A stretch of DNA of 64,000 bases from Escherichia phage Ecwhy_1, in sequence record MH791411.1. One strand, given 5' to 3'. The notes under the pieces were generated by a model. The model did not search any database. It saw only the letters and a list, made by a program, of their open reading frames with translations, and was not told the origin of the DNA. Within the stretch, counting starts at the first letter, position 1; the number at the start of each line of letters is the position of its first letter. This document shows, one piece after another, positions 8,463 to 64,000 of this stretch. The position numbers were made by a program, and so were the translations under genes.

Positions 8463-9665
8463 TTATAGATAATACTTTCCAATGTAAAGTTTATTACTTA
8501 GTGATAGCTGGACGTGACAAGGTTTTTCTTGGTAGTAACGAGTTGATGCTGTTTTATTTTCAGTTGGTGGGAAGAAAGGAGAACGGTATCCATTCCATGT
8601 ACCAAATGATACATGTTCGTTTAAATCCACATCCATTGTCATAATACCATTAGCATCAATTTCAACTGGATACGCACTGTATCGTTCAAATACATCAGTG
8701 TATTGAAGAATATAATCACCATTGCGACCATAATAACTTCTGGTTGTATTGTTCTTTACACCAAAGAAAACACGATATGCCTGTTCATCAACTTTACACA
8801 TGAACGGTACGTTCTCATTGAATCGTCCATTACTCATTATATCATCAGGATTGATTTCTTCGTACTTTACTTTCAAATCTTGTGCTTTAAACGACTTATC
8901 ACTTATCAGTACTGGAATATTGCTTTCACATAATGGGTTACTGCGATTTCGTTGGATATTTTGCCAAAATGCATTAGCTTTAACAATTTCATCTTGAACT
9001 GTAGTTTTTACATTCAGTGCAGCACTTGGTTCTAACGCATAAGTTTCAAGACGAGCATTAAGAGCATATGTCCCACGAGTAGTATTATATACTAAGTGAT
9101 ACTTGGAACTCTTATCAGAAAATGAAAACTCTTTAGTTTTCTTGATACAAATAGCATTTACTTTACCACAATAATAGTAATCTTCCTTATTGTGTCTAAA
9201 ACCATCACCCACTTTCAATTTAGAAACAACTTCTTTTTGATGTTCTTTCTTATTCTCCTTCTCAACCAATTTAGCAAAGGTTTTAGTTTTACCGTTAATT
9301 AGTTCTAAACTATTATTAAAGAACATAGGTTCAACAAATACACCCTTAACAATATCATTGTTGATGATAAGGTCGTTCATGTTTTTAGCACTCACCAAGA
9401 ACTCGAAACCTTCAGGGTGACGTATGGTGAAGTATGTTTCGCGAGCATGAACAGTGAGCTTATGTACCACAGAAAACCCAATTGTAGGCACATTATCAAT
9501 CCATAGTGAAGGTAGATTGTTTTTCTTAGCCCAGTACTCGGCCTTTTCTTTTTTAGTCTCAAACGCTTTTGTGTGTGATTTTGTGGCATCTATAATGTAA
9601 CCAGTAACTTGGTTATGATTTACATATGAACGAGCCACAAATAACTTCTCTGGAAAATCCATCAA
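8463..9665 (-). CDS. hypothetical protein (400 aa)
   Basis: Long uninterrupted ORF; no motif recognised. Confidence 0.55.
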   Translation of the reverse strand: MMDFPEKLFVARSYVNHNQVTGYIIDATKSHTKAFETKKEKAEYWAKKNNLPSLWIDNVPTIGFSVVHKLTVHARETYFTIRHPEGFEFLVSAKNMNDLIINNDIVKGVFVEPMFFNNSLELINGKTKTFAKLVEKENKKEHQKEVVSKLKVGDGFRHNKEDYYYCGKVNAICIKKTKEFSFSDKSSKYHLVYNTTRGTYALNARLETYALEPSAALNVKTTVQDEIVKANAFWQNIQRNRSNPLCESNIPVLISDKSFKAQDLKVKYEEINPDDIMSNGRFNENVPFMCKVDEQAYRVFFGVKNNTTRSYYGRNGDYILQYTDVFERYSAYPVEIDANGIMTMDVDLNEHVSFGTWNGYRSPFFPPTENKTASTRYYQEKPCHVQLSLSNKLYIGKYYL

Positions 9666-10081
9666 ACAGTCCTCATTGTGCTAATTGCTTTTAATGTGTT
9701 AAACAATGCACCATATTTTACTTGCATTAGTTGATCCCCAGCAGGAAGATTCATACGCATAACAGACATGTCTTCAACCATTTCAGATGTACATAGTACT
9801 GCTACACATGTAGTTGCATCATTTAATCCGGCTTCATTGAATTTAGCGAATGGCACTTTTCCCTGCTTACAAAGGTCATCATAATAAGAATTTAACTTAT
9901 CATGACCACCAGCATTTAGTACTACAATAGTTTCGTGGTCATAATACCATTCATCAATAATAGTACTGAAAGCAGTACCTTCATATTCTTTAATTAGTTT
10001 TATGCCAGCATGAAATGCTTGAATGCCAGCTTGGACACCTTGACAGTACATGTTTGTTAAGCAATATAATTTCATTTCCAT
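9662..10081 (-). CDS. hypothetical protein (weak resemblance to PTH2-type peptidyl-tRNA hydrolase)
   Basis: 139 aa; pattern K-x-hydrophobic ... Q-x-x-H-A followed by hydrophobic strand resembles PTH2, by eye only. Confidence 0.45.
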   Translation of the reverse strand: MEMKLYCLTNMYCQGVQAGIQAFHAGIKLIKEYEGTAFSTIIDEWYYDHETIVVLNAGGHDKLNSYYDDLCKQGKVPFAKFNEAGLNDATTCVAVLCTSEMVEDMSVMRMNLPAGDQLMQVKYGALFNTLKAISTMRTV

Positions 10082-23798: not shown

Positions 23799-24332
23799 TT
23801 ATTTCCTCATGTATTTTATTACATCTTCAAATAGTTTAGTTTTCAGTGCATCATCATTACCAGGTAGAAAAGTACTGAAGCTATTAAAATCTTCATTCTT
23901 GGCAAACTCACGCATCTGTGTGGAACTGTAGCGACTTATATTTCGGTCAATTCCAGCTTGAACTGCCTTGATTGAACAAAAATTATATAACTTCCCATTG
24001 TACGTGTCAAGTGTTTTTTGGAATGGTTCAAGTCTATCTGAACCACATATGAAAAGAACATCTAAGTACTTTCCATCCAGTTCTCTCATTATATCAAACA
24101 GATTATCTTCTGTATAGATATTTTCTTGTACAGATGGGTAAAATCCTTCTGTATAGTACATTTTCAGTTCAGGAGGTAATGGGTTTTTGATGGCATCAGT
24201 ACTGGTACTAAGGAATATTTTCAAATCAGCATTGTACTGTTCTTGTAGTGCTTGAGCTTTTTCAAACACTAAACCATGACCTCGATGTACAGGGTTAATT
24301 CTTCCGAATGTCACTACGCATGTTTCTTTCAT
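23799..24332 (-). CDS. HxGH-motif nucleotidyltransferase (cytidylyltransferase-like; possibly NMN adenylyltransferase type)
   Basis: 177 aa; N-terminal T-F-G-R-I-N-P-V-H-R-G-H. Confidence 0.65.
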   Translation of the reverse strand: MKETCVVTFGRINPVHRGHGLVFEKAQALQEQYNADLKIFLSTSTDAIKNPLPPELKMYYTEGFYPSVQENIYTEDNLFDIMRELDGKYLDVLFICGSDRLEPFQKTLDTYNGKLYNFCSIKAVQAGIDRNISRYSSTQMREFAKNEDFNSFSTFLPGNDDALKTKLFEDVIKYMRK

Positions 24333-24853
24333 ATGTTCTTCATCACCTGACCAATAGATTTAAGATGGTTGATTTTAGCTGGAGTCAAATACTTATCCAG
24401 TACTATTAAACAACTAGGGAATGGAGCACTGTCAGTCTTTTTATCTGGTTCTTCAGGGATACCGAACTTTAAGCGACCTTTTATAAAACAAATACAATCA
24501 CAAACTTTCGCAGCATAATCCTGAAAGGCTATAGTATCAGTTCTTGATGGTACGAGAATCAGTACTGTAGCACCTTTGTTATATGCATCAACTGCCTTAG
24601 ATAACCACGTTTTCAAATCACTGTACGGTGGGTTGAGCCACACGATATTGTTTCCCCAGTCCTGTTCAAGTGAATTGTCTTCTGGTGTAAAGAAATTATC
24701 ACACAATGCTGTTTCTTTAACACATGCTGCATCTAGTGTAAATCCCCAGAGTTCATCCAAATCTTCAAAGAAATCCTTTGGAGTAGTCCAGTTATCTTTC
24801 CCAGTACTGAAATGTACTGATTGTTTTTTCTTCGAAGCATCCTTCTTCGACAT
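24329..24853 (-). CDS. phage Dam-type DNA N6-adenine methyltransferase
   Basis: 174 aa; D-N-W-T-T-P-K-D-F-F and W-L-N-P-P-Y-S catalytic motif. Confidence 0.8.
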   Translation of the reverse strand: MSKKDASKKKQSVHFSTGKDNWTTPKDFFEDLDELWGFTLDAACVKETALCDNFFTPEDNSLEQDWGNNIVWLNPPYSDLKTWLSKAVDAYNKGATVLILVPSRTDTIAFQDYAAKVCDCICFIKGRLKFGIPEEPDKKTDSAPFPSCLIVLDKYLTPAKINHLKSIGQVMKNI

Positions 24854-24869
24854 ACATAATTTCCTTTGA

Positions 24870-25415
24870 TTATAGACAGTTAAGTACTATGTCATCAAAA
24901 GTACTACTGTCAATGTTGTATTCATATAAAAATTTAAAATGTGATCCATAACGCATCATCAGATTAAACTCTTCTTCAGTATTAAATTTGTAATCATGAA
25001 GAGTTTCAAGGGTACATGTTAAACCTAAAAACTCAATAATTTCTGATGTTACATCATTTCCTGAATTGAAGTATTTAACCCAAACACATTTTCCTTGTGG
25101 GTTGAATTTTCTATATTCTCCTTCTAGTTCTCCATTGACGATATGTGCTTTCGCACTGATTAGATTATTACTATAACGCTCTTCGTAGTAGTTCCCATAA
25201 CGAGCTTTAAGAATTGTAGGCTTCTTGGTTGGGAATAACTTAATGGAAGTTAATTCAAAACCGCACTGCAACTCTTTGATGTACGAAATACATCCCTTTT
25301 CTTTAATCACAACAAAACCAGTAAAATTCTCTTGGTCTTGGTTCTGATTGTCTGAATCAACAAATTCTAGTGTTTTATAAGTGACGCTTTTAGATTTTTT
25401 AATAAATGACATCAT
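24870..25415 (-). CDS. hypothetical protein (family-A-like TEEEFNLMMRYG segment)
   Basis: 181 aa ORF. Confidence 0.5.
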   Translation of the reverse strand: MMSFIKKSKSVTYKTLEFVDSDNQNQDQENFTGFVVIKEKGCISYIKELQCGFELTSIKLFPTKKPTILKARYGNYYEERYSNNLISAKAHIVNGELEGEYRKFNPQGKCVWVKYFNSGNDVTSEIIEFLGLTCTLETLHDYKFNTEEEFNLMMRYGSHFKFLYEYNIDSSTFDDIVLNCL

Positions 25416-26097
25416 TATTCCTATGGAAACATCAATGACTGTACATGGCGTTGACTACATCAACACCAGTCGAATTATACACGCTTCGCATGTCTAATTC
25501 GACGAAAGTACTATGATTTGTTTTAATTAATATTGACGGGGTTTGCTTGAGCATATTTCATCCCCCCCGCAGGGGAAAGAACAAAAAAAGTTTGACGCTG
25601 GTGGCCTTCACATAGTTCATATCACGAATTCTCTTACGAGGCGAAAGCGGGTTGCTCTGTTTCTCTCTATCGCGGTTCTTGTAGCAACGGTCGTCGGTCT
25701 TAAACATCCCGACACATAATACAAATACCATATGACCAGTACTTGTATTTGATTTCACGAATTTTGGACGCAACTATATTGTATAAATTACGACCGCAAA
25801 TTTCTCATGAAATCTCCCTTAGATAATTGGTAAGGTGCGATCCTTATATGTCTATCGAGGAACTCTCTTTATCCTATTGGAGTTCTTTATACAGCCGCAT
25901 TGCCGTGAGTGGTTCAAACTATGCCATCATCTAACGGGTTTCATTTGCTGTTCGTACTGAAAGGACTACTCATCTACCCTCTACTTTTCGAGTGGATTAG
26001 GCTTTAATCATTTCCATATGGAACCTTTCAGGATTAAAAAAAGGCGACAACATATTCTGCTGTCACCTTACATTATATCATAAACTTATGGTATGTC
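25416..26097. other. ORF-free island, apparently G+C-richer than flanks; candidate structured RNA / regulatory region
   Basis: About 680 bp with no credible ORF on either strand; 9-bp inverted repeat 25469-25477/25495-25503; direct repeat TCACGAATT at 25622 and 25755; runs such as tcccccccgcagggg. Confidence 0.4.
26034..26067 (-). terminator. intrinsic terminator
   Basis: Minus-strand hairpin GGTGACA-n11-TGTCGCC (one G-U) followed by TTTTTTTAA; directly after stop of 26098..26946. Confidence 0.5.
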
Positions 26098-26946
26098 TCA
26101 GTTGTATTCTGTTTTTTCAGTGAAATTAGTTAAGATATCTGCACTTAAGCTTCTCATAACCTCAATCTTACTTGGCATGAACCTGTGCTTGTTTTTTACA
26201 TACAACTCATCATCTTCAATGAAAGATGTGAACATGAATACCATATCTTCACGTGGAATTGAGAGAATATTACAGTTTTCATTTTCAGCAACAGGGGAAT
26301 CATTGTAGTACTTAGAGAATGCAGTACTTTGACGACCGATTATGATAGAATTTCGGATTAGAAAATTACTACAGTACTGAAAATCTTTGTAGTACTTGTC
26401 AAGGATATATGGCATTATCGCTTCTTTCACTTCTTCATATCCATTGGTACTATCAATTTCAGTACAATAATCTTCTCGGTCTTTTTTCCCTCGATGATTA
26501 TCAAACTCGTACTCAAAGAATAAATTTTTATTTAATGAATCATTTGAACCAACTGATCCACTATAGTATGATTTTCTATCATTCATTCGATCATCCGGGC
26601 ATGATGCATACATAGAAATGTCATGTGTTGACGTACCGATATAAATTTTCTTAGTAATGTGATTGTACGCGATGTAATCATAATCTTGTACTCCAGTTAG
26701 CATTAACTGGAACATCAATTCATCAGGAACATCAATTAACGGGTACTCAAACTTCGAATATCTACTACGACAGAAATTCTTTTCAAATGCTCGATATGCG
26801 ATGAAATCTTTTAGGTTTGTAATAGATTCATGCTCATGTGTACTACTGGTGCGTACATTGACATTAGTAGACGAGCAATACCCTTCAGATTCTTCTGCGT
26901 AGTCATAATAACCCTTACTGTAGTCAACGATTAGATAAAGTTTCAT
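26098..26946 (-). CDS. hypothetical protein (282 aa)
   Basis: Long ORF; no motif recognised. Confidence 0.55.
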   Translation of the reverse strand: MKLYLIVDYSKGYYDYAEESEGYCSSTNVNVRTSSTHEHESITNLKDFIAYRAFEKNFCRSRYSKFEYPLIDVPDELMFQLMLTGVQDYDYIAYNHITKKIYIGTSTHDISMYASCPDDRMNDRKSYYSGSVGSNDSLNKNLFFEYEFDNHRGKKDREDYCTEIDSTNGYEEVKEAIMPYILDKYYKDFQYCSNFLIRNSIIIGRQSTAFSKYYNDSPVAENENCNILSIPREDMVFMFTSFIEDDELYVKNKHRFMPSKIEVMRSLSADILTNFTEKTEYN

Positions 26947-28122: not shown

Positions 28123-28971
28123 TTACATTGTTTCTTTTATGTTGCGTAACATAGTATTAACTATGTTCATCTTCCCACCTAACTTGAAGTAATATTCCAA
28201 TTTATTAATAATATTACTTTTTAATATCTCAAATATTTGATATTCATTTGTTTCGAAACCAAGTTCGAATTGGAAAGTATATAAATTGTTGAATAGATGT
28301 ACCAACGATGCATCAGGTGATTCCATTGTAAATGTGTAGTTGGTACGATAACCAGTACTAATCACCACTTCCGATGATTCACCTTTCATGAATATGTCAA
28401 TATTATACATCATTGGGCGACCAGTTGCAATATCTTTCATTCGGAAGAATGCAGTACTACGATACACAACACCATCTTCGGTAACCTTTTCTTGTATAGT
28501 GATATTTGAAACTTCACTCTCTTTGAATTTGGATTCGAATGAATGAATACGATTTGATTTTTCATCATCCGTATACATAGTGCATGTATATTTTCCAAAA
28601 TCATCTCTAGATGTATATGATTTATCGCTGGCGGTTTTATAAAACGAAACCCCATTGATGTGTTCTTCTTTGTACATCATTGTGTCATTGGATTTGTAGT
28701 ATGAACAATTAGGTGTTGAAAGAGATTCAAAATTGTTCACATCATGACAGTAAGAAATAGAAGAATCGCTATACAGTACTACATCACGAATTGCAACTTC
28801 TTTTGAAGTACCTTTTTTGACAGAAATTTGAAAGTCATTGCATGGGAAGATTCTATATCCATCGTATGTATCTGATGTACTGATACCAAATGGTGTTGGG
28901 GAATTCAGAAATTCGTTGATATGTTCAAGTACTGAATACTTTTTGAAATTACGAAAATCTGTTGTATCCAT
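28123..28971 (-). CDS. hypothetical protein (282 aa)
   Basis: Long ORF. Confidence 0.55.
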   Translation of the reverse strand: MDTTDFRNFKKYSVLEHINEFLNSPTPFGISTSDTYDGYRIFPCNDFQISVKKGTSKEVAIRDVVLYSDSSISYCHDVNNFESLSTPNCSYYKSNDTMMYKEEHINGVSFYKTASDKSYTSRDDFGKYTCTMYTDDEKSNRIHSFESKFKESEVSNITIQEKVTEDGVVYRSTAFFRMKDIATGRPMMYNIDIFMKGESSEVVISTGYRTNYTFTMESPDASLVHLFNNLYTFQFELGFETNEYQIFEILKSNIINKLEYYFKLGGKMNIVNTMLRNIKETM

Positions 28972-28990
28972 AGTAATACAATCTCCTAAA

Positions 28991-57866: not shown

Positions 57867-58140
57867 ATTTCTCTTTATTAGCTTGTTTAGATTGTGTGGT
57901 TTTATAGTGAATTAAATCTATTAATGTAATCAAGTACAACGTCAAATAGTACTCTTGTTGATCTGTACCTAATGATACAAAGAACTTGTGCTCATAGATT
58001 AAAACCTGTTTCTCATAACAAGAACACTTAATCCTATGTATAGGTTTCAGTAAATGTGAGTACTTATTAAATCTCATACCCATTTCTATTTCAGATAGTA
58101 CTTTCATATTAAACATGTACTCCATTAGCTGTAGCATCAC
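57856..58140 (-). CDS. family B paralog
   Basis: 94 aa; S-L-G-T-D-Q-Q-E-Y-Y-L. Confidence 0.5.
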   Translation of the reverse strand: MMLQLMEYMFNMKVLSEIEMGMRFNKYSHLLKPIHRIKCSCYEKQVLIYEHKFFVSLGTDQQEYYLTLYLITLIDLIHYKTTQSKQANKEKYEN

Positions 58141-58330
58141 GTAAAGCTCTCAAATACTTCTGTACTGCTTGCTCTTGATGATCTGTACCTAAAAGTATAT
58201 ACATCCATAATTCACTGTAATGTACATCTTGTGTATAAGGGTTGTTGTAACTTTTTGATAATATAGCATCAAATTCAGATGCATGAACCCTTGCGAACTT
58301 AAGCATATCTTGTTGTGTTATGATTCTCAT
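58109..58330 (-). CDS. family B paralog
   Basis: 73 aa; L-G-T-D-H-Q-E-Q-A-V. Confidence 0.55.
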   Translation of the reverse strand: MRIITQQDMLKFARVHASEFDAILSKSYNNPYTQDVHYSELWMYILLGTDHQEQAVQKYLRALRDATANGVHV

Positions 58331-58542
58331 ATCTTTTCCTGTACTATCTGCATAAGAATCTCTATGTGTGAATTAACAGTTCTCTCTTGATGCTGTGTTC
58401 CTAAGAGTGTCAGTACTATCATATCTGAACGCAAAAGATTTTTTTCAAGTTCACTTATATCAGTTCTTGAATCAAGTGCCATATATTTGTGATTATTCTT
58501 CCTGAATAGTGCCAAGTACTCTTGATTTGATATTTCCTTCAT
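58327..58542 (-). CDS. family B paralog
   Basis: 71 aa; L-G-T-Q-H-Q-E-R-T-V. Confidence 0.55.
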   Translation of the reverse strand: MKEISNQEYLALFRKNNHKYMALDSRTDISELEKNLLRSDMIVLTLLGTQHQERTVNSHIEILMQIVQEKI

Positions 58543-58778
58543 AGTTTATCCCTGATGCCATTTAAAAGTGCTCTAATATGCTCCTGTACGAATTTGTACT
58601 GACTGTCTGTTCCTAGAGTGAGTAGTAATCTTAAATCTGAACTTTTGATATGATATTCTAAATCATTATTTGATTCTTGCATCAGTTTCTTAAAGGATGA
58701 GAAGTTTGCAGCCATTAGTTCAATGTATTCTGCTGTTCCTAGGGGTTTGTGTATTGGCTGTTTGTGCTGTCTGTGCAT
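58539..58778 (-). CDS. family B paralog
   Basis: 79 aa; L-G-T-D-S-Q-Y-K-F-V. Confidence 0.55.
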   Translation of the reverse strand: MHRQHKQPIHKPLGTAEYIELMAANFSSFKKLMQESNNDLEYHIKSSDLRLLLTLGTDSQYKFVQEHIRALLNGIRDKL

Positions 58779-58990
58779 TTTAATTTTATTACCCTTTTGA
58801 GTGTATTAATGTAATTATACACATTGGCTTCTTGATAGTTTGTTCCTAGAGTAGCTTGAACGTAGATTTCATTTAACTTAATAATTTTATCAGTATCTGG
58901 AAGTTTTGATGTGTTAATGGCAAATAACTTCGAAAACAGTCCATTTATGATTGTTAGGTATTCTTCGTCGGTAATGATTCGCATTTGCAT
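58739..58990 (-). CDS. family B paralog
   Basis: 83 aa; L-G-T-N-Y-Q-E-A-N-V. Confidence 0.55.
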   Translation of the reverse strand: MQMRIITDEEYLTIINGLFSKLFAINTSKLPDTDKIIKLNEIYVQATLGTNYQEANVYNYINTLKRVIKLKCTDSTNSQYTNP

Positions 58991-59196
58991 TGGATAAACC
59001 TTTTTAGTTCTTTGATGTAATCATTAATATTACATTCTTGATAGTTAGTCCCTAGGGTAGAATTAACATAGATTTCACTCATTAGAATATTTTTTTCTTC
59101 ATCAGGTAAATCTGTGGTCTTTGCTATATACAATTTTAGAATTAAACTACTTAATAGTTCGTGGTATTCACTTGGTGAAAGGATTTTCATTTGCAT
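58954..59196 (-). CDS. family B paralog
   Basis: 80 aa; L-G-T-N-Y-Q-E-C-N-I. Confidence 0.55.
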   Translation of the reverse strand: MQMKILSPSEYHELLSSLILKLYIAKTTDLPDEEKNILMSEIYVNSTLGTNYQECNINDYIKELKRFIQCKCESLPTKNT

Positions 59197-59402
59197 GTTC
59201 TCAGTACAGATTCTTTAAGTTCATCGATGTAGTCCTCAACGAATTGCTCTTGGAAGTTAGTTCCAACATATAAAAGAACTCTTAAATCTGCTCTAAGTAA
59301 CTCTTTTTCATCCTCATCTATATCAGACAATGTTATGTTTAAGAATTTACTTGTATTAAAGATTAACAATTCTGTTTGTTCACTGTGGCTTAAAATTTTC
59401 AT
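59187..59402 (-). CDS. family B paralog
   Basis: 71 aa; V-G-T-N-F-Q-E-Q-F-V. Confidence 0.55.
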   Translation of the reverse strand: MKILSHSEQTELLIFNTSKFLNITLSDIDEDEKELLRADLRVLLYVGTNFQEQFVEDYIDELKESVLRTCK

Positions 59403-59610
59403 AATCTCTTTTTGCTTTCCTCGACAGTAGGTACAAATACGATTCTTCGTATTGTGCTTGGAAGTTTGTGTTTAAGAGTCGAAACAACTTCTGTTCTGCT
59501 AGAACGAGTTGCTTATCTTCATAACAACGGTAGCGTATCAACTTTTTGTATTCGATGTTGATTACATCCATTACTATAAGCCCATGTTCATCATCTGTCA
59601 AGTGCTTCAT
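59380..59610 (-). CDS. family B paralog
   Basis: 76 aa; L-N-T-N-F-Q-A-Q-Y. Confidence 0.5.
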   Translation of the reverse strand: MKHLTDDEHGLIVMDVINIEYKKLIRYRCYEDKQLVLAEQKLFRLLNTNFQAQYEESYLYLLSRKAKRDYENFKPQ

Positions 59611-59848
59611 GCTTTTTTCTTTTCCTGATGTGTTTAGTTAAAAGGTATATTAGTTTTCTGATGTATTCTTCTTGATAGTTTGTTCCTAGGAGTGCCAGAA
59701 GTTTTGCTTCAACTAAAGCTAATTGACGTTCTTCAAATGTGTGTTCCAGTATGTACTTTGGGTTTGATTTTTTAGATATTGCACTATTAGTTTTCATTAC
59801 AATCTTATGATATTCATTAACTGTTAGGATTTTTAAATTCTTGAGCAT
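59591..59848 (-). CDS. family B paralog
   Basis: 85 aa; L-G-T-N-Y-Q-E-E-Y-I. Confidence 0.55.
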   Translation of the reverse strand: MLKNLKILTVNEYHKIVMKTNSAISKKSNPKYILEHTFEERQLALVEAKLLALLGTNYQEEYIRKLIYLLTKHIRKRKKHEALDR

Positions 59849-60074
59849 GTACCTTTTCCTTTATAGAGAATTTAAGATATCGAAGCATACTTTCAATGTA
59901 ATACTCTTGTCTGTCAGTGCCAAGAAAGTACATGAGTTGAATGTATAAAACTTCTGCACTCCTTTCGGCATGTGACTTGTTTGTGTCGTTTGGAAGTTGA
60001 TTTGTAAGTTTTCTGGATTTAATTAGTCGTTCTTTTAACTCATCGTCTGTTAAGTATTTCATTTCATTTTGCAT
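59817..60074 (-). CDS. family B paralog (MQNEM trio)
   Basis: 85 aa; F-L-G-T-D-R-Q-E-Y-Y-I. Confidence 0.55.
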   Translation of the reverse strand: MQNEMKYLTDDELKERLIKSRKLTNQLPNDTNKSHAERSAEVLYIQLMYFLGTDRQEYYIESMLRYLKFSIKEKVHAQEFKNPNS

Positions 60075-60294
60075 TTACTTTTTCCTTAATACTCATTACA
60101 AGATGTTCAATCATATTTTGAACCATAAATTCTTGTTTATCAGTTCCAAGAACGTATGGTAGCTTCTGAAACAATACATTCGCAGACATTTCATATATTG
60201 ATTGATTTGGAACGAACTTAAGAGTAATGTTATTGGCTTTTAACATCTTCTCTTGAAATTCTTCATTCGTTAAGTATATCATTTCACTTTGCAT
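60064..60294 (-). CDS. family B paralog (MQNEM trio)
   Basis: 76 aa; V-L-G-T-D-K-Q-E-F-M-V. Confidence 0.55.
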   Translation of the reverse strand: MQSEMIYLTNEEFQEKMLKANNITLKFVPNQSIYEMSANVLFQKLPYVLGTDKQEFMVQNMIEHLVMSIKEKVNAK

Positions 60295-60520
60295 TTACTT
60301 TTTCCATAATAGTAATTTTGAGATATTTAATTATACGTTCAATGTGATACTCTTGCCTATCAGTTCCAAGAATGTATGGTAATCTTTGGAATAAAACTTC
60401 TGCACTCCTTTCCGCTGGGGTTTGGTTTGGGTTGTGTGGAAGATATTTTGTAAGTTTTTTGGATTTATCTAGTCTTTCTGTTAACTCATCATGTGTTAAG
60501 TATATCATTTCATTTTGCAT
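60284..60520 (-). CDS. family B paralog (MQNEM trio)
   Basis: 78 aa; I-L-G-T-D-R-Q-E-Y-H-I. Confidence 0.55.
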   Translation of the reverse strand: MQNEMIYLTHDELTERLDKSKKLTKYLPHNPNQTPAERSAEVLFQRLPYILGTDRQEYHIERIIKYLKITIMEKVNAK

Positions 60521-60756
60521 TTAATGTTCCTTACGTAAATTGTCTGGATTAAACAATCAATCCAAGTTTGAATATATTGGTTTTGATACTGTGTGCCTAA
60601 GAGACTCTGCATTTTAAACTCTGCTTCAAGTTCATATCTCTTTTCTATAGAAAAGCTCAAATGACCATATTCTTTATCGTATCTTCTCAGTGCTTCCCCA
60701 ATTCTATCAAATCTTTCTGCTAATCTGATGTTATTCACAATATTCATCGCATTCAT
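60505..60756 (-). CDS. family B paralog
   Basis: 83 aa; L-G-T-Q-Y-Q-N-Q-Y-I. Confidence 0.55.
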   Translation of the reverse strand: MNAMNIVNNIRLAERFDRIGEALRRYDKEYGHLSFSIEKRYELEAEFKMQSLLGTQYQNQYIQTWIDCLIQTIYVRNIKCKMK

Positions 60757-61031
60757 CGATCAGTACACCTCAGTGGTTGGGTCATTTGATGAAAGTACAG
60801 CTTACCTCTGATTTCCAGTAGTAACTCAGCAATTAAGCGATTTACTTCTGGCTCTTGATAGTTTGTTCCTAAGAATACACCCATCTTTAACTCACGCATC
60901 ATAATCATTTTCTTACTGTGTTGAATTTCTGGGTTGTGATAGATTGTATTACGTTTGTGCGTAATTTTTGTCATACGCTCGGTATATTCATCTTTACTTA
61001 AATTGATCATTTGCATGTTCATCAACCTCAC
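60753..61031 (-). CDS. family B paralog
   Basis: 92 aa; L-G-T-N-Y-Q-E-P-E-V. Confidence 0.55.
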   Translation of the reverse strand: MRLMNMQMINLSKDEYTERMTKITHKRNTIYHNPEIQHSKKMIMMRELKMGVFLGTNYQEPEVNRLIAELLLEIRGKLYFHQMTQPLRCTDR

Positions 61032-61242
61032 ATTTATTTTCGATACAAATCATGAGTTCTCTAAGATAGTTTTTTACCTTACCTGCCTGATAGTTCGTCC
61101 CCAGGAAGTTGCATAACTCTGCTTCTATCATTTTGATTCTTCTGTTATCAGGTTTCAATTTTTTGTTATTGAAGATTTGAATCCTTATATCCCTTGATGC
61201 ATTTAAACGTTTTTGATATTCATGGAAAGATAAATTAATCAT
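60994..61242 (-). CDS. family B paralog
   Basis: 82 aa; L-G-T-N-Y-Q-A-G-K-V. Confidence 0.55.
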   Translation of the reverse strand: MINLSFHEYQKRLNASRDIRIQIFNNKKLKPDNRRIKMIEAELCNFLGTNYQAGKVKNYLRELMICIENKCEVDEHANDQFK

Positions 61243-61457
61243 TTACTTTGTATCTCTCTCTTGAGGGCATCAATTAACAACAGTACAGCATTCTCTTGAT
61301 AGTTTGTTCCTAAGACTGAAAGCATCTTAATCTCATTTACTACGATCAACTTCTTTGAGCGTTCAATAATGTTACTATTATAAACGGCGTTACGTGCTGG
61401 ATAAGTTTTTGCAAGACGTTCATAATATTCATCTTTACTTAAATTAATCATTTGCAT
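61239..61457 (-). CDS. family B paralog
   Basis: 72 aa; L-G-T-N-Y-Q-E-N-A-V. Confidence 0.55.
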   Translation of the reverse strand: MQMINLSKDEYYERLAKTYPARNAVYNSNIIERSKKLIVVNEIKMLSVLGTNYQENAVLLLIDALKREIQSK

Positions 61458-61666
61458 TTACTTTTGACCTCCTTGACTAATGCATCAACCCACATGTCTA
61501 TATACATTTGTTGATAGTTTGTCCCTATGAGTGCCCCTGCATAGAGTTCAGCTATCAATGCATGTTTTAGGTTGGCAGGGATGCTCTTATCAGATTGAAT
61601 CTTTACTCTTCTGTTGGCACATGTTTTCAGGAGTCTGATGTATTCAAAGCCTTGTAATTTTCTCAT
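61448..61666 (-). CDS. family B paralog
   Basis: 72 aa; I-G-T-N-Y-Q-Q-M-Y-I. Confidence 0.55.
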   Translation of the reverse strand: MRKLQGFEYIRLLKTCANRRVKIQSDKSIPANLKHALIAELYAGALIGTNYQQMYIDMWVDALVKEVKSKCK

Positions 61667-61878
61667 TCTTTTGATATCACCTTGTTACGTAAGGCACTTA
61701 ACAATACGTCAGTGTAGATGTTTTGATAGTTTGTTCCTACGAATACACCCAACTTCATTTCAGCTATTATAACACATTTGTCCTCTTGTGCAATAGACTT
61801 GTCTAAAGAAATACTAACAACTTTCCTTCTTATAGCTTGTAACCTCCAATGATACTGAAACTCATTTAGGGTTATCAT
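61663..61878 (-). CDS. family B paralog
   Basis: 71 aa; V-G-T-N-Y-Q-N-I-Y. Confidence 0.55.
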   Translation of the reverse strand: MITLNEFQYHWRLQAIRRKVVSISLDKSIAQEDKCVIIAEMKLGVFVGTNYQNIYTDVLLSALRNKVISKE

Positions 61879-62113
61879 TCTCTCGCCTCCATATCTCGGT
61901 TCTAATGTGTTGACATTGTGCTTCGATGAACATATCTATTGATTTGGCAATTGCTTTTTTATCAGTGCCTGTCATCAGTACAAGCATCTCGGCCTCACAG
62001 TGAAGTAAACGCATGATATCATAGGGTAATATTCCAGATACCGTGTCATAGTGTTTCTGTGCCAGTGTCTGTAATAGTTTACAATACATTTTGTGATTTA
62101 GTCTTTGTCGCAT
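61862..62113 (-). CDS. family B paralog (degenerate core)
   Basis: 83 aa; M-T-G-T-D-K-K-A-I. Confidence 0.45.
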   Translation of the reverse strand: MRQRLNHKMYCKLLQTLAQKHYDTVSGILPYDIMRLLHCEAEMLVLMTGTDKKAIAKSIDMFIEAQCQHIRTEIWRRENDNPK

Positions 62114-62370
62114 TGTCTATTCCATTCTTTTTTGGCCTTGATGGTTTTATATTGGATTTGGTTTCTTAATGCTGATAAGTATCGTTGAATGAACAGATCT
62201 TGATAGTTTGTTCCAATGAATTTCATAAGATAAAGTTCACCGTTGATAACATCCACTTCAGGTGCACCATATAAGGCATTGTTTTTTCTAAGGGCATGGA
62301 TTAAAGAGAATAGGGCAGTTTGATACTCAACTCCTGATAAAGTCTTCATGTTTTGTGAGCCAATAATCAT
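62098..62370 (-). CDS. family B paralog
   Basis: 90 aa; I-G-T-N-Y-Q-D-L-F-I. Confidence 0.55.
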   Translation of the reverse strand: MIIGSQNMKTLSGVEYQTALFSLIHALRKNNALYGAPEVDVINGELYLMKFIGTNYQDLFIQRYLSALRNQIQYKTIKAKKEWNRQCDKD

Positions 62371-62590
62371 CTAGTTTATCCTGTATAACATTCATTAATT
62401 GTTCGACATATTCTGTGCAAAACTTATCTTGATATTGAGTCCCCATAAAGTACAGCAACCATAGCTCATTAACTTTAGCTCGCATTTGGTTCCATGTAAG
62501 GCTGGGGTCATCGTAGACTATCCTTGCTATAGGGGTTAGTTTACGGACTATAGTTTCATATTCATCTAGTGTTAAGTGTTTCATTTGCAT
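62327..62590 (-). CDS. family B paralog
   Basis: 87 aa; M-G-T-Q-Y-Q-D-K-F. Confidence 0.55.
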   Translation of the reverse strand: MQMKHLTLDEYETIVRKLTPIARIVYDDPSLTWNQMRAKVNELWLLYFMGTQYQDKFCTEYVEQLMNVIQDKLDDYWLTKHEDFIRS

Positions 62591-62799
62591 TTGTCCCTTA
62601 TTAAATCAGTGAGGGCAACTATGTGTGCAACAACATACTCTTCCTGAAAGTTCGTCCCCAGTACAGCCATCATGCGTATATCGGTGGTGTTTATTCTGTG
62701 TTCCCTTACACATAAACCTTCTGTGTGAGGAAGTGTAAAATATTTGTTTATTGCAGCAACGATAATTTTATTCTTCTCGTAATTACTTAAATGTTTCAT
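62581..62799 (-). CDS. family B paralog
   Basis: 72 aa; L-G-T-N-F-Q-E-E-Y-V. Confidence 0.55.
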   Translation of the reverse strand: MKHLSNYEKNKIIVAAINKYFTLPHTEGLCVREHRINTTDIRMMAVLGTNFQEEYVVAHIVALTDLIRDKCK

Positions 62800-63008
62800 A
62801 GTTTGCTCTTAATGTATTTCTGGAGTGCAATTATATACTCATTCAAGAAGTGCTCCTGATAATCTGTGCCGAGGAATGCACCCAATAGTATATCATTTTC
62901 CAATACTAATGCTAAGTTTAAATCATCAGTCTCTTCATATACTATGAGAATTTCAAGTTGTCTGGCAGCGACGCGTTCGGTATATAGATTTGAGTTAATG
63001 CTATTCAT
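62796..63008 (-). CDS. family B paralog (near-identical pair)
   Basis: 70 aa; L-G-T-D-Y-Q-E-H-F-L; C-term Y-I-I-A-L-Q-K-Y-I-K-S-K-L. Confidence 0.55.
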   Translation of the reverse strand: MNSINSNLYTERVAARQLEILIVYEETDDLNLALVLENDILLGAFLGTDYQEHFLNEYIIALQKYIKSKL

Positions 63009-63217
63009 AGTTTACTCTTAATGTAATTCTGGAGTGCAATTAAGTATTCCCCTACATAATACACCTGAAAGTCTGTATCCAAAAATGCACCCATAAGTAA
63101 ATCTTTTTCTAATACCCTTGATAAGTTAAGGTCTGCATTTGAATTGTATATAATTAAGATTTTATTCTGGACAGAAACAAAACGTATCTTATATTCTTCT
63201 GGTGTTAAAAAAATCAT
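63005..63217 (-). CDS. family B paralog (near-identical pair)
   Basis: 70 aa; L-D-T-D-F-Q-V-Y-Y-V; C-term Y-L-I-A-L-Q-N-Y-I-K-S-K-L. Confidence 0.55.
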   Translation of the reverse strand: MIFLTPEEYKIRFVSVQNKILIIYNSNADLNLSRVLEKDLLMGAFLDTDFQVYYVGEYLIALQNYIKSKL

Positions 63218-63423
63218 AGTTTACTCTTAATATCTTCTATTAAAAAATGAATCCAATCATCAACATACTCTTCCTGATGGTTTGTGTTCAGTACAGCCAA
63301 CATGCGGATCTCTGCTCTTGCAACTTGGATTTCAGTTTTAGAAAGGTCTTTGCTGATATCAAACATTAAGTCCATGTATTTCAAGATAAGACCGAATGAT
63401 TGGGTTCGTGTTATAGTTTTCAT
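63214..63423 (-). CDS. family B paralog
   Basis: 69 aa; L-N-T-N-H-Q-E-E-Y-V. Confidence 0.55.
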   Translation of the reverse strand: MKTITRTQSFGLILKYMDLMFDISKDLSKTEIQVARAEIRMLAVLNTNHQEEYVDDWIHFLIEDIKSKL

Positions 63424-63620
63424 TGTTTCCTCGTGGACAATATTTCATTTTTCAATGCATCCATATATTGAATCACCCATCTTCCCTGATAGCTTGTACC
63501 CAATGTAATCAAAAGGTATAACTCAATTCGTTCTAAGTTTGTGTCTGTGTTATAAATCTTTACCATGTTTTTACGTAACAGTTCTTGATAATCTTCTTTA
63601 TTTAAAATACGCATTTTCAT
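63420..63620 (-). CDS. family B paralog
   Basis: 66 aa; L-G-T-S-Y-Q-G-R-W-V. Confidence 0.55.
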   Translation of the reverse strand: MKMRILNKEDYQELLRKNMVKIYNTDTNLERIELYLLITLGTSYQGRWVIQYMDALKNEILSTRKQ

Positions 63621-63814
63621 AGTCTACCTTTTATGTCCCTTCGTAATTCTTGTAAGTATAGTTCGATATACTTTTCTTGATAGTTAGTTCCTATGAAAAG
63701 TTTCATAACCAATTCACGCTTATATGCAATACCACGGATATGTGACATATGTAAGATATATGCCATGTTGGATATGAGTGTGTGGTTGTGCTCTTCTTGA
63801 GTTAAAATACGCAT
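63617..63814 (-). CDS. family B paralog (first gene of array)
   Basis: 65 aa; I-G-T-N-Y-Q-E-K-Y-I; GGAG RBS 7 nt before ATG at 63812-63814. Confidence 0.55.
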   Translation of the reverse strand: MRILTQEEHNHTLISNMAYILHMSHIRGIAYKRELVMKLFIGTNYQEKYIELYLQELRRDIKGRL

Positions 63815-63844
63815 AGGGACTCCATTAAAAATAATATCAATCCA

Positions 63845-63872
63845 ATAATATACGATTCATATAAAAAGTCAA
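63845..63872 (-). promoter_or_regulatory. sigma70-like promoter TTGACT-N16-TATTAT heading the family B array
   Basis: Revcomp of 63845-63872 = TTGACTttttatatgaatcgtaTATTAT, about 30 nt upstream of the first family B start. Confidence 0.45.
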
Positions 63873-64000
63873 TAACATTTTATAAGTAATACCCCTTTAT
63901 CGAAGTCGCTAAGGTTACCCGCCCTTTAGCCCCCTACGCATTTTGCCATAGTCCAATCCCTTTTTATTCATAAAAGTCAAGGGATTACCTATGCATTTTT

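Follow-up and report, generated by a model that had tools for sequence, protein, structure and literature searches.

The DNA studied here is a stretch of 64,000 nucleotides from Escherichia phage Ecwhy_1 (MH791411.1), called the window throughout; it matches the reverse complement of the Asteriusvirus genome fEgEco12 (PP777464.1, 374,733 bp) at 100% identity, position x of the window corresponding to position 85917 - x of that record. At 25416-26097, between two blocks of minus-strand genes, lies an island that very probably holds a functional gene whose product, read from the minus strand, is a structured RNA belonging to a new family. The original prediction, made by a model from the letters alone, had described this island as free of open reading frames (ORFs) and rich in G+C, and both descriptions were borne out. 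Its largest ORF spans no more than 71 amino acids, and its 682 bp form the longest stretch left uncovered by ORFs at an 80-amino-acid threshold in the window's first 58 kb. The G+C fraction averages 0.334 +/- 0.028 over the window; the island has 0.397, a value reached by only 1.5% of 682-bp windows, and its core (25527-26005) has 0.418. Of the three candidates then put forward, the structured non-coding RNA is now strongly supported, the decayed gene is rejected, and the replication origin with iteron-like repeats is not supported as stated.

Invisible to the original prediction was the multi-copy nature of the element. fEgEco12 carries four paralogues that are ~70% identical, at ~60.2, 110.9, 196.0, and 307.4 kb (copies A to D, A being that of the window), all in one absolute orientation. 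Searched with a profile of the paralogues, the window copy is matched over its full length (nhmmer E = 4e-142) and all helices described below map onto it. E-values given by nhmmer lie below 1e-40. GAP32 (NC_019401.1) has five copies, at ~35.4, 98.9, 177.8, 261.8, and 340.9 kb, RaK2 has at least one full-length divergent copy (E = 3e-46), and every Rak2-like genome examined, RaK2 included, carries one or more. The core is 97.6% identical to its counterpart in PBECO4 and 96.8% to that in 121Q, as against ~85% generally for the surrounding 12 kb (85.3% for PBECO4). Identity falls to 66-76% in GAP32, CBB, Serratia phage BF, 7t3, fHe-Yen9-04, and Xanthomonas and Erwinia phages, where distant matches begin at ~25527. 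With conservation exceeding that of the flanking genes, the core appears to be under purifying selection. A metagenome pattern scan yielded 29 loci, a reference-genome scan one full copy, and IMG/VR only the copies in 121Q and fHe-Yen9-04. Removal of near-duplicates left 22-24 distinct copies; the alignment used for structural analysis (A3) contains 22 non-redundant sequences in minus sense.

The alignment of homologues suggested in the original prediction revealed compensatory substitutions in abundance. RNAalifold folded A3 into 77 pairs forming 16 helices, and 51 of these pairs show compensatory double changes, compared with 12-26 in controls in which the 3' partners were slid by 1-3 columns. 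In the same controls the proportion of paired cells drops from 95.4% to 36-45% and the number of double-change cells from 279 to 23-54; none of 500 column shuffles reached the observed covariation values. Between the conserved blocks, insertions and deletions of any length occur. A covariation scan that ignored nesting added two helices that cross accepted ones. In the first pseudoknot (H10; 99% paired, four of seven pairs covarying) the loop of H9b has its partner strand further downstream, at a distance that varies among copies (~110-170 nt), and in the second GUUGC pairs with GCAAC within the loop of H13, crossing H12 (100% paired, three of five pairs covarying). The 3' core with both pseudoknots is 93.4% paired, against 35-44% in slid controls. 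H12 itself is 100% paired with four covarying pairs, and the otherwise invariant H13 carries a compensatory change in RaK2, from GAGAG/CUUUC to GGACG/CGUUC. The predicted architecture comprises three domains, ~16 helices, and two pseudoknots, and the fold holds invariant purine-rich single-stranded segments: CUAAGGGAG, GAUAGACAUAUAAGG, GACCGUUG, and GAGAGAAAC..CCCGCUUUC.

Four independent lines of sequence evidence place the predicted RNA on the minus strand; the original prediction had given no strand for the element. An extended -10 motif, TGnTAYAAT, stands at the promoter site in 21 of the 22 non-redundant copies, as well as in RaK2 and the E. coli island, and in 18 of the 22 TGRRAC precedes it, 17-18 nt upstream of TAYAAT. 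An A/U-rich hairpin followed by U6-7, in minus sense, is found in 19 of 22 copies (absent in copies A and D), and the four pairs of this hairpin, helix 15, all covary. Wobble pairs are likewise asymmetric, with a minus-sense G·U to A·C ratio of ~56:16 in covariation-supported helices and 121:19 across all helices; helix 16 contains, in 17 of the 22 copies, an internal U·G that in plus sense would be a C·A mismatch. An earlier wobble test, confined to pairs that both strands were predicted to form, gave a G·U to A·C ratio of 50:54 and was uninformative because its design excludes exactly the wobble-rich pairs. Loops of GNRA/UNCG type appear in minus sense only, as GUAA on H14 of copy A and UGCG on the G+C-rich hairpin. 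Mean fold energies, at -138 (plus) and -141 kcal/mol (minus), do not separate the strands. The promoter is of the same class as the "divergent RpoD-like" promoters (-35 TGAAACG) reported for CBB and GAP32, mostly before DNA-synthesis genes (PMC5259590). In the chromosomal-island clade (L015, L035, L036, and L045), two tandem extended -10 promoters (TGGTATAAT) lie ~65 nt apart before the RNA.

In the window copy these signals overlap with the end of the upstream gene. The original prediction had recognized a terminator here, taking it only as the end of that gene, and a 12-pair stem (26069-26041) followed by T7 is indeed present on the minus strand. It sits downstream of a minus-strand promoter (GAGACA-16-TATAAT with TG, 10/12) far better than the plus-strand one proposed near 25451, which proved a weak match read by the scanner as TTGACT-16-AATTAT (9/12); the promoter scan found three promoter-like sites in the region against 3.5 expected by chance. 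Promoter and upstream stop codon overlap in copy A, which puts the terminator hairpin of the upstream gene inside the RNA leader. Leader hairpin and T7 are an insertion specific to copy A of Asteriusvirus, conserved in 121Q with compensatory changes. A start 6-8 nt past the -10 would truncate the 5' arm of the hairpin and weaken its calculated fold energy from -17.6 to ~-9 kcal/mol; with its 5' arm untranscribed from the RNA promoter, the hairpin would stop only upstream read-through. The RNA would be ~480-530 nt long, with a probable start at ~26065. Features of the window copy and intact copies on bacterial chromosomes are listed in the table.

Features of the RNA gene in the window (domains, helices, and signals as predicted from A3) and positions of intact chromosomal copies
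Feature	Position	Strand	Remarks
-35-type hexamer TGAGAC	26095-26100	-	Overlaps TGA stop of upstream ORF (26098-26946)
Extended -10 TGATATAAT	26072-26080	-	TGnTAYAAT conserved in family
Whole promoter TGAGAC-N17-TGATATAAT	26100-26072	-	Promoter scan 10/12
Leader hairpin and T7	26034-26069	-	Intrinsic terminator of upstream gene
RNA gene (predicted)	25533-26065	-	End at U-tract 25582-25589, or at 25533 with read-through
5' domain, three-way junction	25959-26029	-	H1 enclosing hairpins H2 and H3
H1	26024-26029 / 25959-25964	-	Double changes in 5/6 pairs
H2	Within 5' domain	-	Double changes in 3/3 pairs
H3	25990-26000 / 25974-25981	-	Double changes in 7/8 pairs
Central domain	25860-25951	-	H4, H5 with variable insert, hairpin H6
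H4	25947-25951 / 25891-25895	-	100% paired
H5	25934-25937 / 25903-25906	-	100% paired; variable insert
H6 hairpin	25880-25885 / 25860-25865	-	Compensatory changes in 6/6 pairs
Pseudoknotted 3' core domain	25616-25846	-	H8, H9, H9b, H10-H14, two pseudoknots
Invariant CUAAGGGAG	In 3' core, listed between H8 and H9	-	From alignment
H10 downstream strand	25616-25622	-	Pairs with H9b loop
Pseudoknot 2 strands GUUGC / GCAAC	25684-25688 / 25651-25655	-	Crosses H12
H13, invariant GAGAGAAAC...CCCGCUUUC	In 3' core	-	Compensatory change in RaK2
H14	In 3' core	-	GUAA cap
First AUC-N-K-CGUCAR motif, here CCAGCGUCAA	25590-25604 (motif 25604-25595)	-	Nearly invariant in A3
U-tract	25582-25589	-	Preceded by A/U-rich terminator hairpin in 19/22 copies
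G+C-rich hairpin UUUCCCC-UGCG-GGGGGGA	25556-25582	-	Helix 16; "tcccccccgcaggggaaag" of the original prediction
Conserved tail with second CGUCAA at its end	25533-25555	-	Kept in RaK2 and chromosomal islands
Spacer to next gene (24870-25415)	25416-25532	-	Lineage-specific, outside conserved RNA
Copy of E. coli LR-29-1	NZ_AP027515.1, L056:8961-9541		ffs-ybaA island
Further intact island copies	L045:3512-4112; L035:2534-3133; L057-L060 ~9175-9773		

The two CGUCAR motifs that frame the 3' module change together, reading CGUCAA in Asteriusvirus and CGUCAG elsewhere. Of the repeats on which an iteron-like origin had been proposed, the 9-bp inverted repeat GTCGAATTA / TAATTCGAC is exact (25469-25477 / 25495-25503); it lies in the spacer, flanks GACA-N11-TATAAT, and is unconserved beyond Asteriusvirus. 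The direct repeat TCACGAATT is present at 25622 and 25755 as described, and occurs five times in the window; its role as an iteron did not hold, one of the two island copies lying in the 3' strand of H12 and the other adjoining the 3' strand of H9. Some copies of the element carry optional ~40-nt hairpin modules (e.g. UACAAUAUAGUUGCGUCCAAAAU) in the loops of H9 and H14 (A3 columns ~320-380 and 505-543; window 25760-25800), which resemble one another and a motif upstream of the next gene. The idea that their GACA-N10-13-TAWAAT is a general phage promoter was dropped, the window containing three matches against 4.8 expected.

No described RNA family matches the element, and the class of RNA is new. 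None of the 4227 covariance models of Rfam 15 gave a match at gathering score anywhere in the window, and ARAGORN found no tRNA or tmRNA gene in it. At E <=10, only the terminator and flanking coding sequence were matched in 25200-26300, and no match fell inside the element in nine other copies. The intact ORF in related phages that, according to the original prediction, would point to a pseudogene was likewise absent: the 22 copies have no ORF of at least 30 amino acids in a common position on either strand. Small ORFs have been annotated over the element in GenBank (g160, window 25558-25731; RaK2 ORF245, L055:1488-1694; GAP32_503A, L054:2984-3097; fHe-Yen9-04 g347/g348); they lack positional conservation and are therefore probably spurious calls. 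Three local resemblances were set aside: a hammerhead-like CUGANGA, the first base of which varies (C or T) and which has no Rfam match; the likeness of ACAGAGCAACCCGCUU to CR-V of RNase P, judged a coincidence; and the Shine-Dalgarno-like CUAAGGGAG, which a six-codon ORF follows in copy A only. We found no description of the element in the literature, although a large-scale survey of viral RNA structure (PMC10690425) may list it without a name, and the genome papers of fEgEco12 and CBB make no mention of it. A precedent from a related jumbo myovirus is Pseudomonas phage PA5oct, in which RNA sequencing detected ORF-free transcripts on the gene strand (ncRNA001-004, 236-619 nt), two of them abundant throughout infection (PMC7318152). 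The two of these that were compared, ncRNA001 and ncRNA002, have no similarity to the element (nhmmer).

The copies occupy recurrent positions. In both fEgEco12 and GAP32, copy A has as neighbours the same hypothetical gene, a DNA methyltransferase, and a cytidyltransferase; copy B adjoins a Dps-like gene; and copy C adjoins EndoVII and gp46/47. Copy D comes after a sigma-factor gene in fEgEco12 and RaK2. Within fEgEco12 each of the four sites has its own, unrelated flanking genes. Positional orthology received only partial support from a neighbour-joining tree, where the copies are not strictly sorted by position and copies A, B, and C of fEgEco12 cluster together. Gaps between the copies of GAP32 are 64, 79, 84, 79, and 53 kb (random-placement P ~0.0045 for a minimum gap of at least 53 kb), and the corresponding value for fEgEco12 is P = 0.08; both tests are post hoc and the genomes tested share ancestry. 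A second locus was sought with nhmmer across the window, including 58000-64000, and none was found besides the 25416-26097 island. That part, towards the terminal-repeat side, is the early small-gene region, where very small ORFs follow one another and many gaps open at the 80-amino-acid threshold. Near copy A, the hypothetical genes g159 and g155 (26098-26946 and ~28127-28975; L001:6799-7647 and 8824-9672) are both 849 bp long, lie 1.2 kb apart, and may be paralogous. At 23799-24853, fEgEco12 g163 is named "ribonucleotide reductase A" and g162 "type I R-M methyltransferase subunit"; in GAP32, PBECO4, and others the orthologous genes carry the names cytidyltransferase and DNA N6-adenine methyltransferase.

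The element is also found on bacterial chromosomes, and some apparently metagenomic phage copies turned out on inspection to be chromosomal. Two of 5426 complete E. coli genomes contain it; the copy is intact (E = 8e-135) and retains its promoter, its terminator, and the 3' module. The E. coli island, between ffs and ybaA, encodes a P4-type integrase split by IS3, hypothetical genes, and a candidate defence system, PDC-M45 (DuOB, DUF488). After the RNA follows an unannotated 700-bp stretch (L056:9545-10259) with repeated TATCGATCGTT motifs, which might be an operator or origin. In Citrobacter, Enterobacter, Klebsiella, and relatives, the element lies in an island at ppdD-nadC with the order large serine recombinase, RNA, orf165, CI-like S24 repressor, HTH_35 protein, orf186, orf118, retron (RVT_1 and STM3845), resolvase, and SIR2_2 or other cargo; the recombinase-RNA-orf165 unit recurs beside modC in another contig. 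The E. coli and ppdD-nadC islands have orf118 in common and vary in defence cargo, and their RNAs are nearest (81-84%) to the C-type phage copy. As candidate phage satellites, the islands carry an integrase and a CI/Cro-like switch, with a CI-like S24 repressor and an HTH_35 protein, and hold the element in a single copy; no replication or packaging genes were recognized in them. PICMI satellites, which have their own primase and a helper phage of ~48 kb, were rejected as a close precedent.

By its signals the gene appears to be stand-alone, with its own promoter and, in most copies, its own intrinsic terminator. We favour a trans-acting RNA over one confined to its locus, because two pseudoknots and invariant purine-rich loops over ~450 nt typify the RNAs of ribonucleoproteins (RNPs) and ribozymes; the chances of trans action and of action at the locus are, in our judgement, finely balanced. 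Transcription would be by host RNA polymerase in the early to middle phase of infection, together with that of the DNA-synthesis genes with the same class of promoter, and the dispersed copies would give a high RNA dose. A protein partner would mediate the action of the folded RNA, which would serve as RNP scaffold or ribozyme-like core, comparable to the large "ornate" phage RNAs GOLLD and ROOL, and the copies in integrase-bearing chromosomal islands would exploit or interfere with this partner. The statement as a whole, joining a stand-alone structured RNA gene to trans action via a protein partner, we consider about as apt to be right as wrong. GOLLD, ROOL, OLE, and raiA, which were of unknown function at discovery, are likewise several hundred nt long with covarying helices, pseudoknots, and invariant loops, and likewise reside on phages, prophages, and mobile elements. 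Unlike them, the element matches none of their covariance models, occurs in enterobacterial jumbo myoviruses as four to five dispersed paralogues with their own promoter and terminator, and has a conserved module past the terminator.

Several points weigh against this reading. The protein partner is purely proposed, and we infer the start, end, and expression of the RNA from sequence. Covariation was counted without phylogenetic independence, part of the alignment consists of metagenomic and chromosomal-island copies, and the fold energy of the single sequence beats that of shuffles by a modest margin only (z = -1.9). The MAFFT alignment of variable inserts is also imperfect, the outer part of H9b being only 79% paired in alignment A4. 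The 3' module is located past the terminator and yet conserved throughout the family. At least four sites are syntenic across genera, all copies share one orientation, and those of GAP32 are regularly spaced. All four of these features favour a locus-bound role over a diffusible RNA.

These last points lead to the main rival, which we regard as a serious but unlikely contender: a locus-bound origin RNA, each copy marking a site of replication initiation in a 350-kb genome. The folded transcript would form or organize an R-loop or primer at the 3' module, as do ColE1 RNA II and T4 oriF/oriG. ColE1 RNA II is a promoter-driven transcript of ~0.5 kb whose fold is important, and T4 has several transcript-dependent origins in its genome; the likeness lies in a promoter-driven RNA of ~0.5 kb with a 3' G/C-rich stretch followed by A+T-rich DNA. 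The module here has the order repeat, terminator, G+C hairpin, repeat, A+T-rich DNA, and the conserved promoter drives the transcript towards it, as would be expected of a primer or R-loop origin RNA. Besides the synteny and the spacing, this rival draws on the co-orientation of copies even against opposite neighbouring genes, on the retention of the post-terminator module with its concerted CGUCAR motifs in phages and islands, and on the promoter class in common with DNA-synthesis genes (PMC5259590). Against it, a primer or R-loop RNA needs neither two pseudoknots nor invariant loops across 450 nt, and the terminator that would release the RNA precedes the G+C hairpin. There is no sequence relation to ColE1 RNA II or the T4 origins, and the fold is far more elaborate. 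The spacing is less regular in fEgEco12, and the tree fails to group copies by position. R-loop, RNase H processing, initiator protein, and start of DNA synthesis are for this element all hypothetical.

The origin RNA would also offer an account of the islands: small integrative islands would carry one copy for amplification by the phage replisome, and those without a recognizable replication gene do hold a single copy beside the integrase. A Pseudomonas jumbo phage transduces islands that have integrase and defence genes and lack transfer genes (PMC12595487), and the islands studied here are similarly integrase-bearing, with defence systems and without transfer genes. Satellite and helper cis elements such as the P4 cos site and PICI origins are comparable in being non-coding elements common to a virulent phage and islands; unlike a cos/pac site or an iteron origin, the shared element here is a structured RNA gene, and the satellite behaviour of the islands is putative. 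That the RNA marks four to five replication-initiation sites, one copy of which was pirated by defence islands that thereby multiply and spread with the phage as satellites of virulent jumbo coliphages, is a little less probable again than the origin function by itself.

Improbable by comparison is an RNA of phage-host conflict, that is, a decoy, sponge, or anti-defence molecule, which the island copies would mimic so as to poison or sense the phage. Intact copies do adjoin a retron (RVT_1 and STM3845), SIR2_2, and PDC-M45 (DuOB/DUF488) in defence islands, and the island copies are nearest to one type of phage paralogue. It is, however, RNA and orf118 that stay constant while the defence cargo varies; the target is purely hypothetical, and four to five position-conserved phage copies are left unexplained.

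An element that acts at the DNA level alone, for instance an iteron origin or a site for protein binding or packaging, to which the helices are irrelevant, is very improbable. It could claim the two conserved direct CGUCAR motifs, the G+C-rich inverted repeat, and the dispersed, co-oriented copies, but the 51 compensatory pairs, some of which join strands separated by as much as 170 nt, make no sense in a DNA duplex, the asymmetry of G·U over A·C indicates one folded strand, and the repeats named in the original prediction are helix strands. An iteron origin in particular was rejected, there being only two 10-11-nt CGUCAR motifs ~60-100 bp apart and no array of at least three repeats of ~17-22 bp. 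Slighter still is the chance of a cis-regulatory leader, be it a riboswitch or a processive antiterminator of the kind seen in the HK022 put RNA. Copies A, B, and D do have a co-oriented next gene, but copy C is antisense to both neighbours in fEgEco12 and GAP32, two genera, so that the RNA is no leader of downstream genes; moreover, the downstream genes differ at each site, and in most copies a new promoter-like site comes after the final terminator.

We give the same marginal chance, jointly, to a known catalytic or housekeeping RNA (group I or II intron, RNase P, tmRNA) too diverged for the models, to a decayed gene, and to a small-protein gene. Size and pseudoknots recall ribozymes, and the annotated small ORFs g160, ORF245, and GAP32_503A would suit a small protein; ten copies, however, gave no Rfam match at E <=10 and there is no tRNA or tmRNA, and neither a decayed nor a small-protein gene accords with the lack of any ORF conserved in position (both strands, 22 copies) or, for the former, with conservation above that of neighbouring genes. 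The T4-like group I introns of td, nrdB, and nrdD are pseudoknotted RNAs of similar size in T4-related genomes; unlike them, the element stands outside any gene, with its own promoter and usually a terminator, its flanks are unrelated from copy to copy, and Intron_gpI is not matched at E <=10.

To our knowledge, large RNAs this architecturally conserved are rare, almost all having proved to be ribozymes or cores of important RNPs, and new classes of large RNA emerge only a few at a time. The class described here is new, and its mechanism may be so as well. In practical terms, the GenBank records of these phages hold probably spurious small ORFs over the element. Its home in a cultivable coliphage with a tractable host makes direct functional testing possible, and either outcome would be novel: an RNP or ribozyme of a new kind, or replication origins that are defined by RNA and pirated by satellites, in which case the islands' sole hijacking device would be an RNA gene. 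Its presence in integrative defence islands as well, in E. coli, Citrobacter, Enterobacter, and Klebsiella, points to an interaction of jumbo phages with mobile islands that is centred on RNA.

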